Shown: piece by piece, positions 54 through 17,866 of the stretch
Numbering within the stretch: the first letter of the stretch is position 1
Layout: each line of letters opens with the position of its first letter
DNA from: Antedon mediterranea
Lineage: Eukaryota > Animalia > Echinodermata
Assembly: GCF_964355755.1 (NCBI RefSeq)
Contig: NC_092673.1
Coordinates: forward strand, 8,866,001 to 8,930,000
Direction: 5' to 3'
DNA: 64,000 nt
Notes under the pieces: model-generated
Databases searched by the model: none
What the model saw: only the letters and a program-made list of their open reading frames with translations
What the model was told of the DNA's origin: nothing
Made by a program: the position numbers and the translations under genes

Positions 54-2794
54 ATGTTCAAGATGAACATTGTGATTTTATTGATTGACATTTTATTTAT
101 TTTTGTAATAATACCTGTACATTTTGTATCTGGAGAAGTGACTGATGATGAAATACGATGCTTAACTAAGCTACTTACTGATTTTACCCCTTTTATAAAC
201 GATCATCTTCAAGACTATCTATATGACTACGCTGACACCGATTCGGAACGAATATCAGTTCTTGCGGTATTGCCATTGGAAGACACTCCTTTCTGGTGTA
301 ATAATACTTACCTGGAAAGAACATTTAGATCTTCTACAAATGAATTAGGGTTTGTAGTTCCTGATGAGTTGAATTATGCGGTACCAAGTTTAGCTTCAGA
401 CGTTTTTAATTACATATCAGCTATTCCTTATGTCGAGAATGACATCGTTCAATCGGATCTAAAACTGCTTTTGAAGTTTCCAGAGAGGATCCAGGCAATG
501 GTAGATTGGCATCATTTAGATGAAATAAACGTAACAGCACATGTATTTTTCTTATACACCTGGAAATATCCATGTAGTAGTTGCACCGATATGATTTTGG
601 ACGTTCTTAATATTGAAAGGTACCAAACAGCTCCTCTCATAATATCATTCACCGACTGGGGACATGAAGACCCGGATATAAATACCATGGAAAGTGAGAA
701 TACGTTTAATGTAGCTGCCATCCAAAGACCCTCATTTGCACCAATTATCCGTTTTAGATACGAGTACAAAACAGATGCAAGTTATTATTTTGATTTATTT
801 CACAATGTGATATTCGATAAATTCTACCGTACGGGTGTGCCTCGTCAGCAAGGTGAGCAAATTCGATTTGCCGTCCTCATGATCTTGCCATTACATGATA
901 AAGACATGTGGTTAACTCCAGACTACGCTGAAAATGTGCTGCGGCCCCTTACGGCAAGAGGTCGCGTGTTGACACCTGTGTTAAACGAACTCATTGCTCC
1001 TTCACAAATTAGTGAAAGCGATAACTTTATTGTTGCCCGTGGTGAAGCTGCTCAGTCATATGCACTTCGTGGTGAAAATACAGACGGAAATAACATAGCG
1101 TTACTTCTTAATAACCATGAACGCATACATGGATTGGAGACACCAACTGTTATTGCTCTTTATTCGTGGACTTGTTTCCATGATAATGTCATTTTACAAG
1201 AATCAGCAACAATACTTGAACTGTATGTACGACAACCAGACATATACAGGGTAATTTATGGTTGCTCATCAGAAATTTCTGACGATGATTTTGAAACAAC
1301 GCAATCAACGCTTGGTGATATTGATGTAAAAGCGTTTCTTGTACGGGAAAAGTTTCCTCAAGACGTTATTCAACCTGTAAACGAACCGCCGTTTGAAGAT
1401 CATGAATCCGCCGCTGATATGCGCCCGTTACCACCAGGGGGAGATCAAAGAATATGTCGGGTTAGAAGAGCACTTGATGAAAATCTTCAGTACAGCTCTT
1501 TTCAGAATTGTGCGTTCCAGTGTTTGGTGAATGAATACGAGTGCGGCAGATTCTGTTGCTGCTGTAAAAGTAACTTTATTACGGAAACCACGTCGTATTT
1601 AGTTAACAATATCGTATCTGATTGCAGGTAAGTTATCTACACAACAGTCACCATTGAATGGCAATCACACAATTTGCACCCTGTTTTCTACATTCAACAT
1701 CTTCAAACAAAAACCGTGAAATGTGCAAAAAGTCACATTTGTGCAAACATGATACCCATAAATGTGGAAATCTGTAAGAAAACAATCCATAAAATTCAAT
1801 GACACAAATAGTATGTGTAACATATTTATATGAGCTTTAGTTTTATCAAATACTAAAAATACATTGCGATGTTCGACATTTTCTGCATCTCCGGATATCA
1901 TTGTGGTTTTTTGTTGTAACAAAACGGATAATTTCAGCCTGTATTACTATTTAAATACGTAATTGGCTATATTGAAAACATTATGTTAGAAAAAACCGTG
2001 GATATTTAAAATTAGGTTATCATTTTTAATAAACTGATTTTGGTTGAAGAAAATGATTTTACACATTTAACGTCAAAACTGATTTTACGGCGTGATGTTT
2101 GCACATTAGTGATTATGAATGTTTAGATTTGCACATTTGTGGTTGTTTGCACAAATGTGACTTTATGCACATTTCACGGTTCAACAGGGATAATTTCTGG
2201 GTTTTTTCAGTCCCTATATACTTAATAGCTGTAATGTGGTATCTGGTGAGTCATAATTAATTGTTGTTTTCGTCATTATTGAAGAGTAAATTAATGTTTT
2301 TCAATTCTCACTTTATCATCATCTTTATAGTATCATTGCTGTTATCTTGACCACCAGTGTTTTATTATTACCTTCAATATCATTCACTTTAGCATTAGCC
2401 CAATATTGAAATAATTTTTCTTTCAGAAAATATATATTTGATAGAGAAATTAAAACATGTTGGGAGAATTGGTTAAACTACAATGTTCATAATGAATGTG
2501 ATTGCACAGAGCACAATGCAACCTACGTCATAAAAGAATGCTTCGTTGCTTGTTCAGATGTGAGACTACTTTTAATATTATTTCATGTTTTAATTGTGCA
2601 TAAATTTAGTTTAGTAGGCCTAGGTCTATTATAATCATTAAGTAGACCTACTATATACGTTAAATATGTAGAGACCACGGGGTGTTTATTATCATTCTTG
2701 TCCGTCATATCACGCGGATACAACAAACATTTGGAAGAAATAGAAGAAAATGTGTTTTCAGGTAATGCTGTGTTCCTCTTCAAAACGCAGGAAC

Positions 2795-2893
<99 letters not shown>

Positions 2894-17000: not shown

Positions 17001-17866
17001 TGTCTGAGATACAGTACATGTCACTTGTGTGGAAGGAAACACTCATAAACTGGCACTGACCATTACTCTACATACGTTAATGTAAAATTGTTACTGTTAA
17101 TAATATCTCTTTGTTTAGACTGGATTTGGTGACATTAACGACGAATTTTGGCTCGGTAATGAAGTGATTCATCGATTAACCAATCAGGGGCATTATGCTC
17201 TTAGAATTGATCTTGAAGACTTTGTAGGCAATAGTGCATACGCCCTCTATGATAGCATTGTTGTTCTGGATGAGAACCAAGATTACCAGATATTGCTTGG
17301 CAACTTCTTAGATGGAGATGCTAAGGATTCGATGGTAGGATCATCGCCATTCACAACATCAGGTGGTGAAAACAATAGAATGCCATTTAGTACCTACGTA
17401 AGTATTTCTTGTTAATTTGCTACCATTAGAAACCAAATCAGAGTTCAATTTGTATTTAGTCGTACATGCCGTGAGATGATAATTAATTAACGATAATTGT
17501 GCATACAAGTAGCCTGTACTCTAAGAACTTGGAACACGAGGTGATGCATCGGTCATTCTCCTTTAACCTCTTCGTAATGTTCATCGTTTAATGTTTGCAT
17601 TGATCTTCTTGTTCCTTTTAATTTAGGATCGTAAAAACCCGGATAGTAGTCAAAGTGAAAATTGTGTCGAGTCTCGTCACAGTGGATGGTGGTTCAATGT
17701 AGAATGTGGTTCATCAAACTTAAATGGTGTCTATTATGATTTTGATGACGAGTATTTAAATCCACCACACAATTCAATCCATTGGTATTCATGGACATAT
17801 AGCCACATGGCCCTCAACAAAGCCTCCATGAAAATCAAGATATTGGAAAACTACAACCGCAAATAA
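11009..17866 (+). CDS. Secreted multidomain putative immune protein, paralog B (~1167 aa), same architecture as paralog A
   Basis: Exons 11009-12765, 12930-13062, 13513-13738, 13899-14061, 14448-14617, 15059-15221, 15430-15584, 15926-16143, 17119-17397, 17627-17866. Total 3504 nt, in frame. Intron phases match paralog A, and exons 2, 4 and 6 have identical lengths (133, 163, 163 nt). Signal peptide [34 protein letters not shown] motif; two SRCRs; FReD ([30 protein letters not shown]). Confidence 0.9.
16182..16945 (+). mobile_element. Helentron-associated non-autonomous element (HINE/DINE-1-like) in intron 8 of paralog B
   Basis: T-run followed by subterminal IR agtcgcgt (16187) pairing with acgcgact (~16918). 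It has (GTCT/GTCG)n microsatellite blocks, an internally duplicated core tatagttcactatgtcggtc...ccggtatcactatgc, and a short 3' hairpin ending in TT. Confidence 0.7.

Follow-up and report, generated by a model that had tools for sequence, protein, structure and literature searches.

The secreted AID/APOBEC-like deaminases (AADs) SNAD1 and SNAD2 (Krishnan et al. 2018, PMC5889660; PF18744) resemble, as far as the available part of that paper describes them, the feather-star proteins that we report here. In the same part, SNAD1-3 are vertebrate and SNAD4 is from sponge, and the described SNADs carry inserts or extensions with no SRCR or fibrinogen domains, whereas our genes are from an echinoderm and are fused to both. 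SNAD function, and above all the way in which a secreted deaminase reaches its target, is stated to be unknown in portions of PMC11004436 and PMC13402138, and the first of these gives activity in this family as abolished when the Glu or a zinc ligand is lost. Inactive AADs, e.g., the N-terminal domains of APOBEC3G/3F and proteins of Ciona and Evechinus, have a dead fold which a section of PMC5889660 proposes to be a nucleic-acid binder or decoy, as we do below. These proteins are intracellular, and APOBEC3G, which like our genes has tandem domains, keeps its dead domain beside an active one; in contrast, both domains look dead in our proteins, which are predicted to be secreted. ADAT3 is another inactive deaminase. 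Secreted SRCR and fibrinogen domains, the types found here, take part in invertebrate recognition in DMBT1/SRCR proteins, invertebrate FREPs and ficolins (PMC6208332, in the part available). No earlier description of the deaminase, SRCR and fibrinogen combination was found in the literature searched, which agrees with the sequence-only reading that the architecture was undescribed.

The window, i.e., the whole 64,000-nucleotide stretch of Antedon mediterranea DNA that was analysed, contains the following two genes:

54 to 9187, plus strand: gene 1, ten coding exons, 1106 aa, an open model with GT-AG introns
11009 to 17866, plus strand: gene 2, ten coding exons, 1167 aa, with the same architecture as gene 1

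The gene 1 exons (54-1627, 2427-2559, 4648-4876, 5278-5440, 5592-5767, 6475-6637, 6836-7002, 7290-7495, 8360-8644, 8963-9187) contain one stop codon, at the end, and those of gene 2 lie at 11009-12765, 12930-13062, 13513-13738, 13899-14061, 14448-14617, 15059-15221, 15430-15584, 15926-16143, 17119-17397 and 17627-17866. All 18 introns of the pair are GT-AG and the phases are the same in both (2,0,1,2,1,2,1,0,0), so the earlier claim of two paralogous 10-exon genes with shared phases holds, while its label of a 'system' is too strong for a gene pair. The RefSeq protein XP_071948679.1 (P0001; Antedon mediterranea) is a two-gene chimera that merges genes 1 and 2 into one model; exons 2-10 of both genes are identical to it at all aligned residues, and gene 2 agrees with it at 1131 of 1132 aligned residues. 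Its RefSeq name, 'DMBT1-like', takes no account of the N-terminal half. By Pfam this protein has only SRCR and Fibrinogen_C stretches (4 and 2, respectively), with no CUB, ZP, Ig or collagen domain. DMBT1 combines many SRCR domains in a long array with CUB and ZP domains, and the identity that the name implies was rejected because CUB and ZP are absent; compared with DMBT1/SRCR proteins, each of our genes has only two SRCR domains. A snail-type FREP, with IgSF domains before the fibrinogen domain, was also rejected, there being no Ig match in P0001.

The first exon of each gene encodes a hydrophobic N-terminus and two domains of predicted deaminase fold, D1 and D2, scored here against a profile built from outside deaminases only:

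54 to 134, plus strand: predicted signal peptide of gene 1, residues 1-27 (Kyte-Doolittle hydropathy up to 2.9, cleavage site placed by eye; a signal anchor is possible)
180 to 770, plus strand: gene 1 D1, residues 43-239, 56.3 bits (best of 1000 shuffles 5.8), predicted fold matching deaminases
771 to 1340, plus strand: gene 1 D2, 15.5 bits (best of 1000 shuffles 4.9)
11009 to 11077, plus strand: predicted signal peptide of gene 2, residues 1-23 (hydropathy)
11081 to 11659, plus strand: gene 2 D1, 38.5 bits (best of 1000 shuffles 6.3)
11660 to 12250, plus strand: gene 2 D2, weak alone (5.1 bits, best shuffle 4.8), placed by its 27% identity to gene 1 D2 and by the D2-pair profile

By hydropathy, the N-terminal stretch is the sole strongly hydrophobic one in both proteins, and neither has a transmembrane stretch. 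All four domains scored above each of their 1000 shuffles, and hhalign of the D2 pair against outside deaminases gave a probability of 93.6 (E 2e-7). The sequence-only reading had seen one deaminase-like region of about 430 aa; its deaminase-like character stands, and in place of a single domain there are two repeats. Identity between the paralogs is 30% for D1 and 27% for D2. A tree of 10 rows, from which no clade is assigned because its branches are long and only a single fork is starred, groups D1 with D1 and D2 with D2 across genes with unstarred support, which suggests that the doubling likely came before the gene duplication.

A blind phmmer search of 1,835,955,588 proteins returned three matches, all intact deaminases of 194-216 aa with HAE and PCxxC, and the E-values linking our domains to these intermediates were 1.5e-4 to 6.4e-4. 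SNAD1 was the best Pfam match of all three, and among P0002-P0004 only P0002 passed the PF18744 cut-off (25.8 vs 25 bits). Together with the outside-deaminase profile and the fold matches below, these intermediates support the deaminase-fold assignment and the SNAD-like affinity proposed earlier. The closest sequence relatives found, the single-domain deaminases P0002-P0006 and the L001 ORF from ENA/metagenome contigs, are 30-32% identical over the matched stretch and share with our domains the pattern of NYIxARP and LY(T/S)W..PCxxC; they differ in that their HAE is intact, that they consist of one domain of 194-220 aa without fused domains, and that their N-terminus, judged by eye, is not hydrophobic. 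Relatives with these patterns were found in 0 of 53 viral and 0 of 36 prokaryotic contig candidates, and the metagenome contig scan yielded 1 of 117 candidates. Pfam gave no direct deaminase match to the window domains, none exceeding the gathering cut-offs of PF18744 or PF18750 (SNAD4), and sequence searches of the PDB, whether D1 or the profile was the query, turned up chance matches only (E 0.17 or worse). Three further searches were weak blanks: word-index searches with gene 1 exon 1 against proteins of 918-2620 aa found only P0001 and with gene 2 exon 1 against proteins of 227-723 aa found none, and the profile found none among proteins of 100-595 aa, although P0002-P0006 lie in that range.

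The predicted model of gene 1 D1 (pLDDT 72, pTM 0.75) has the topology H1-S1-insert-S2-H2-S3-H3-S4-H4-S5, i.e., a five-stranded alpha/beta core of the deaminase superfamily in which helix 4 precedes strand 5 (the AAD/TadA division). All 41 Foldseek rows listed are AID/APOBEC or dCMP deaminases, the best listed E being 6.8e-4 (APOBEC3H) at TM-scores of at most 0.41. The best VIA hit had Z 7.3 (tool's mark 8; rmsd 3.4, 117 aligned), and its best 20 rows belong to the deaminase superfamily, 19 by title and one which we take to be a member. This fold match, of the kind proposed earlier as a check, covers gene 1 D1 and is not independent, the underlying alignment containing 6 intact deaminases in 10 rows; single-sequence AlphaFold of D1-D2 (pLDDT 33) was unusable. 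Between strands 26-32 and 78-81 lie helices 33-38 and 42-49, in the manner of the SNAD1/2 insert, with block pLDDT of 77-83 there and about 60 further on. The SNAD1/2 signature C---CxxC---C, which starts where strand 5 ends and comes with neomorphic strands 6-7, does not follow strand 5 in either gene: gene 1 has no Cys between residues 177 and 374, and gene 2 none between 155 and 373. A thioredoxin fold, considered on account of the CxxC, was dropped: ESM Atlas leads reached 0.81-0.83 against the tool's mark of 0.9, and sequence relatives and fold matches are deaminases. With thioredoxin-like families left out, ESM Atlas gave no usable match.

The zinc site, like the tandem domains, is a point at which our genes depart from SNAD1/2. 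An HxE, CxE or DxE motif at helix 2 occurs in none of the four domains, no [HCD]xE lies anywhere between strands 2 and 3, and none of five aligners placed a His in the His column. The HxE position named in the earlier reading has no His in any of the four domains; it reads Q133-x-D135 in gene 1 D1 (nt 450-458) and S114-x-E116 in gene 2 D1 (11348-11356). Both D1 domains have a CxxC (C174-x-x-C177, 573-584; C152-x-x-C155, 11462-11473) and both D2 domains lack it, the gene 1 D2 having no HxE and the gene 2 D2 no His. The ten-residue motif peptides reported earlier do lie at 555-584 and 11444-11473 by sequence and codon position, with the proposed (F/L)LYTW..PCxxC form true of gene 1 and replaced in gene 2 by FMYTW and LCxxC. 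FTDWG follows strand 4 in both D1 domains and its Trp is the loop-7 aromatic residue, which part of PMC5889660 names as an AAD feature. FTDWG and CxxC are retained despite 30% identity and near-saturated synonymous sites (pS 0.69-0.86 between paralogs outside the linker, so that dN/dS is not usable). As the zinc motif is missing from all four domains, they are most likely pseudo-enzymes, which weakens the 'targeted effector' reading and favours a role as binder or decoy.

Downstream of the deaminase-like pair, both genes continue into the same series of modules:

1449 to 4876, plus strand: gene 1 Cys-rich module (end of exon 1, exons 2-3; includes CCCC), cysteines kept between paralogs
5278 to 7002, plus strand: gene 1, two six-cysteine SRCR domains (exons 4-7; PF00530 above cut-off, cysteine list)
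7290 to 9187, plus strand: gene 1 fibrinogen C-terminal domain, FReD (exons 8-10; PF00147 above cut-off)
12251 to 12566, plus strand: low-complexity acidic linker of gene 2, which by alignment exceeds that of gene 1 by about 60 aa
12569 to 13738, plus strand: gene 2 Cys-rich module (end of exon 1, exons 2-3; paralog alignment)
13899 to 15584, plus strand: gene 2, two SRCR domains (exons 4-7; paralog alignment, Pfam on the RefSeq protein)
15926 to 17866, plus strand: gene 2 fibrinogen C-terminal domain (exons 8-10; Pfam on the RefSeq protein, PDB sequence matches)

The Cys-rich module has no Pfam match and is 36% identical between paralogs. SRCR and Fibrinogen_C exceeded Pfam cut-offs in the five gene 1 exon pieces scanned, and the gene models with Pfam bear out the reported fusion of a deaminase-fold region to two SRCR and one FReD per gene. 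Six-cysteine SRCR domains are group A. At what we take to be the calcium site, the FReD loop reads DKKNP or DRKNP, compared with DRDND in a neighbouring FReD gene, so calcium-dependent lectin activity is not assured.

On balance we favour the view that these two crinoid paralogs, predicted to be secreted and combining two likely dead SNAD-like domains, a Cys-rich module, two SRCR and a FReD, are soluble pattern-recognition proteins (opsonin or decoy) and not editing enzymes; the immune role is proposed on the strength of the domain types. A possible history is that an intact SNAD-like deaminase of one domain was duplicated inside a single exon, that its zinc site was lost, and that it came to stand before an SRCR-SRCR-FReD cassette. 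In coelomic fluid or mucus, the SRCR and FReD domains would hold the protein on microbial surfaces or glycans. D1 keeps pocket features (the Pro after strand 2, the loop-7 Trp of FTDWG and the CxxC, likely a disulfide outside the cell) and could bind nucleic acid or a pyrimidine-like ligand without deamination, or take up an inhibitor that a pathogen directs against active deaminases, with D2 as a scaffold; the available part of PMC5889660 proposes inactive AADs as decoys or binders. The catalytic-position Glu and CxxC still present in gene 2 D1 count against this explanation.

The same dead-deaminase fusion could instead serve a non-immune extracellular role (matrix, adhesion, gamete coat or regeneration) with the folds as protein-binding scaffolds, which we consider rather unlikely. 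The best PDB sequence matches of the last gene 2 FReD exon, FGL1, fibrinogen-420 and angiopoietins with ficolin lower, lean that way, as do the neurotrypsin-like besides DMBT1-like SRCR proteins of echinoderms in a portion of PMC13228809. In fish, however, SNAD1s have been connected with immune tissues and with challenge (PMC11004436, PMC13402138, parts available), and our genes follow the pattern that section 12 of PMC5889660 describes for immune AADs, being duplicated in tandem, having an additional exon-1 copy and diverging faster in their deaminase region (27-30% vs 52-57% identity).

We consider it improbable that D1, most plausibly of gene 2 or of a third exon-1 copy, deaminates actively by way of a non-canonical metal ligand and is brought to microbes by SRCR/FReD. 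In 4 of 5 alignments, Glu116 of gene 2 D1 occupies the catalytic position, and this D1 also has the CxxC and loop-7 Trp; a snail AAD subclade is proposed in part of PMC5889660 to compensate for a lost HxE residue; and the catalytic part of the third copy lies outside the RefSeq model. On the other hand, the His is replaced by Ser or Gln, the helix-2 region has no His common to both paralogs, gene 1 has Asp in place of Glu, and D2 lacks zinc ligands.

Evidence on splicing came from sequencing run X1, RNA by guess only, as contig-length arithmetic. A contig (record 6) joins gene 2 exons 1-2-3 by length and runs on:

13739 to 13809, plus strand: gene 2 read-through past the exon 3 donor, 71 bases of intron 3, stop at 13753-13755 (run X1, record 6)

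This read-through is possibly a 710 aa short form without SRCR/FReD, or else a retained intron. A second contig (record 4) has the length expected if exon 3 of gene 1 is spliced to exons 4-10 (1160 + 61 = 1221); another piece, equal to it in depth, stops at 4876, the gene 1 exon 3 donor. The earlier claim that exon 1 is spliced to the SRCR/FReD exons is thus consistent in its parts, 1-2-3 in gene 2 and 3-10 in gene 1, while none of the contigs listed holds the whole fusion or joins exon 1 to SRCR exons, and the 15 joints listed of 68 include no splice joint. Short secreted exon 1-3 proteins (two deaminase folds plus Cys-rich module) as the main products, with the SRCR-FReD fusion minor or from one gene only, are very doubtful: record 6, the in-frame stop soon after the exon 3 donor in both genes (658 aa in gene 1, 710 aa in gene 2) and a gene 1 AATAAA at 5093-5189 speak for them, against which stand record 4 with its equal-depth piece, an exon 3 donor and phase common to both paralogs, the lack of a signal peptide in exons 4-10 themselves, the absence of AATAAA from the gene 2 stop to exon 4, and a RefSeq exon 3-4 junction identical to ours in both genes.

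That SNAD-like domains are naturally fused to surface binders of two classes is a clue that this fold acts at microbial surfaces and can persist without catalysis. SNAD-like domains are thereby also placed in echinoderms, which fills a position between the clades described from sponge and from vertebrates. Given that Pfam is blind to them and that they were hidden as 'DMBT1-like', other genomes may hold further, overlooked SNAD-like domains.

The third exon-1 copy, 84% identical and absent from the sequence-only reading, lies outside the window, and RefSeq joins it to gene 1 exons 2-10, identical to those of the window, without covering its catalytic part. Residues of this copy were seen in both sequencing runs, and the window's copy was also seen in run X1. 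The third copy may splice onto the gene 1 tail, and we tentatively raise, as a less probable proposal, that the locus is a secreted receptor with a variable head and a constant tail, in which alternative first exons (signal peptide plus a diverged dead SNAD-like pair) feed a shared Cys-rich/SRCR/SRCR/fibrinogen tail. If so, a pair of dead deaminase domains would serve an invertebrate deuterostome as a variable recognition module of a new kind, and a real alternative first exon would be a new route to receptor variety in invertebrates. Contig depths, which give neither copy number nor ranking and are not counted as evidence, were 286 for the window-type exon 1, 282-300 for single-copy parts and 361-399 for the other type in run X2, and 5.2 and 6.8 for the exon-1 types vs 13.7 for exons 3-10 in run X1; they fit a second genomic copy feeding one tail.

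The two tandem genes proposed by the sequence-only reading were borne out as paralogs of ten exons each. When exons are joined by coordinates, both genes are open (1106 aa for gene 1, 1167 aa for gene 2), introns are GT-AG in 18/18 cases with a phase series common to both genes, and the motifs that had been quoted are present where they were placed. SRCR and Fibrinogen_C domains scored above Pfam cut-offs, confirming this part of the claimed architecture, while the Pfam scan gave no match to exon 1 or to the Cys-rich exons.

54–9187, forward strand: gene 1, SRCR in exons 4–7, fibrinogen C-terminal domain (FReD) in exons 8–10
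11009–17866, forward strand: gene 2, same layout
1449–1627, 2427–2559 and 4648–4876 (gene 1) and 12569–13738 (gene 2), forward strand: Cys-rich module of ~155 aa with a CCCC run, kept between the paralogs, no Pfam match
18734–19441, reverse strand: uninterrupted FReD ORF of 235 aa that runs towards gene 2 (PF00147, E 1e-68), with a DRDND loop and 38–41% identity to the fused FReDs

Based on sequence relatives, profile scores and a structure model, the N-terminal region is predicted to be a deaminase fold, as had been claimed. Gene 1 residues 45–524, searched unguided with HMMER against 1.84 billion representatives, gave three matches (E 1.5e-4 to 6.4e-4), all to the first deaminase-like domain of exon 1 (D1). 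Each of the three has a single domain, carries HAE and PCxxC, and in Pfam scores best on SNAD1 and next on further deaminase families. A five-sequence profile (A2) built from outside deaminases alone, with 1000 shuffles per domain tested, scored 56.3 bits on gene 1 D1 and 38.5 bits on gene 2 D1 (shuffle maxima near 6), and among 1088 six-frame window segments the two first exons alone reached E <0.2. Profile-profile comparison gave a probability of 98.7. AlphaFold modelling of gene 1 D1, from a 10-row alignment with 6 rows of intact deaminases, gave pLDDT 72 and pTM 0.75; helix 4 precedes strand 5 and helices are inserted between strands 1 and 2, matching the arrangement described for SNAD1/2 (PMC5889660). 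With this model, 41/41 rows listed by Foldseek were deaminases (best APOBEC3H, E 6.8e-4, TM-score 0.36), and in a second structure search, made without Foldseek, deaminases took the first 20 places (19 of them so titled) with a best Z of 7.3, which is middling by that method's scale. In the structure prediction suggested earlier as a check, gene 1 D1 matches deaminases; this outcome leans on the alignment used for the model, built with deaminase homologues, and does not count as evidence separate from the sequence result.

The fold of the proposed N-terminal region stood but its single domain did not, as exon 1 encodes two such domains. After D1, a second repeat (D2) has the same strand-1, N(Y/F)xxAR and LY(S/T) motifs, with profile-profile probabilities of 93.6 against an outside deaminase profile and 89.5 against D1. 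On A2, D2 reached 15.5 bits in gene 1 (best shuffle 4.9) and 5.1 bits in gene 2 (best shuffle 4.8); given this low score, the gene 2 domain is assigned by its likeness to gene 1 D2.

No HxE, CxE or DxE was found between strands 2 and 3 in any of the four domains. The His of outside relatives lies 11–13 residues past NY, and D1 at offsets 14 and 12 reads Q-S-D (gene 1) and S-T-E (gene 2), placed at the His-motif position by 4/5 aligners in each gene; CxxC is kept in D1 and absent from D2. HxE/CxE/DxE and CxxC-type motifs define the active site in the deaminase family (PMC5889660), and loss of active-site motifs abolishes deaminase activity (PMC11004436). Because the former motif is missing from all domains and CxxC from D2, catalysis has likely been lost, and the idea of a targeted deaminase effector is weakened, since the domains look dead. 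FTDWG, which holds the aromatic loop-7 residue closing the pyrimidine pocket (PMC5889660), is present in both D1 despite 30% identity and near-saturated synonymous sites, which suggests a retained binding surface.

On balance, we favour a recognition protein acting in soluble form. Its SRCR and FReD domains would attach to the surfaces of microbes, its two dead deaminase domains would serve as a decoy or take up a nucleic-acid-like ligand, and it would work in like manner to domain-shuffled invertebrate recognition proteins. Secretion, ligand binding and an immune role are all putative, and a non-immune extracellular role for the same domains is possible, though we think it rather unlikely. 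Activity of D1 as a non-canonical deaminase is more doubtful still.

The recognition-protein reading joins exon 1 to the SRCR/FReD exons, as previously proposed. Transcript readings were drawn from the rows listed for sequencing run X1 (presumed RNA) and from variant tables, and X1 contigs behave as spliced. In record 6, the pieces at 12762 and 13512 lie 135 letters apart, where the genome has 749 bases; the last 3 bases of exon 1 and the 133 of exon 2 add up to exactly this figure once a G common to both sides is counted only once. Records 4 and 7 start at exon 10 acceptors; record 4 has 1221 further letters versus 1160 for gene 1 exons 4–9, with 61 left over for exon 3, and record 7 has 654 versus 652 for gene 2 exons 7–9. 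Piece ends at 4648 and 4876 in variant rows coincide with the two ends of exon 3 in gene 1. Splicing of exons 1-2-3 (gene 2) and 3–10 (gene 1) is supported separately, and the whole chain in a single molecule was not seen among the rows listed. Record 6 also extends to 13809, beyond both the donor of gene 2 exon 3 and a stop codon at 13753, which counts against the long form. That short forms are the main products is the least credible of these alternatives.

Among long proteins in the database, gene 1 exon 1 had a single relative, XP_071948679.1 from the crinoid Antedon mediterranea, named 'DMBT1-like'; the fusion protein is not DMBT1, which has a long SRCR array with CUB and ZP domains. Every aligned residue of exons 2–10 of both genes is identical to this protein, as are 549/550 residues of gene 2 exon 1, which makes A. 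mediterranea the very likely source of the window. The RefSeq model is a chimera in which the gene 1 stop is skipped and bridged into gene 2 via a short exon near 10938. This bridging exon (10938–10996, GT donor at 10997) may truly belong to the 5' end of gene 2 or may be an artefact of the gene modelling. The first exon of the RefSeq protein matches gene 1 exon 1 at 289/345 residues, the protein keeps window residues at exon 3 sites variable in reads, Asp and Thr at its positions 378 and 380 recur as variants in X1 and a second run, X2, and tblastn found no third exon-1 copy within the window. Since this first exon differs, its variants occur in reads and the window holds no third copy, a further exon-1 copy is most likely to be found upstream of the first window position. 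It would be either an alternative first exon or a piece of another paralog that the model joined in error, and the model has faults elsewhere. The RefSeq model covers this copy only from beyond its CxxC, outside its catalytic part.

The head of the fusion is SNAD-like, yet falls outside SNAD1/2 on HxE, C-terminal cysteine signature and Pfam cut-off. Krishnan et al. (PMC5889660) place SNAD1–3 in vertebrates and SNAD4 in sponges, and 'SRCR', 'crinoid', 'Antedon' and 'Anneissia' are absent from the supplement up to near Fig. S18. No description of a deaminase-SRCR-fibrinogen protein was found in the titles and abstracts listed from a full-text collection of mostly open papers, and the searches yielded no protein of the same architecture beyond one species. 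The architecture is real, built from known parts and apparently not described before; the claim of novelty holds within the mostly open papers searched.

The outside proteins P0002–P0006 and an ORF at 554–1180 of contig L001 are unnamed intact deaminases of one domain each that lack a hydrophobic N-terminus. Their best score, a weak one, is on SNAD1, and they may form a cytoplasmic sister group of SNADs that has not been described. Few genes surround the ORF on L001. The window also holds the following repeats.

3989–4557, gene 1 intron 2: tandem repeat of a 113-base unit (5 copies, 95% identity), then an (AT)40 run that stops just short of exon 3
~7540–8230, 9500–10500 and 16180–16945: high-copy interspersed repeats (contig pile-up)
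54920–57523, reverse strand: open frame of 867 aa (endonuclease/reverse transcriptase) from a LINE-type element

An X2 contig links 16184 to 16944, and the other haplotype may therefore lack the repeat element of gene 2 intron 8.
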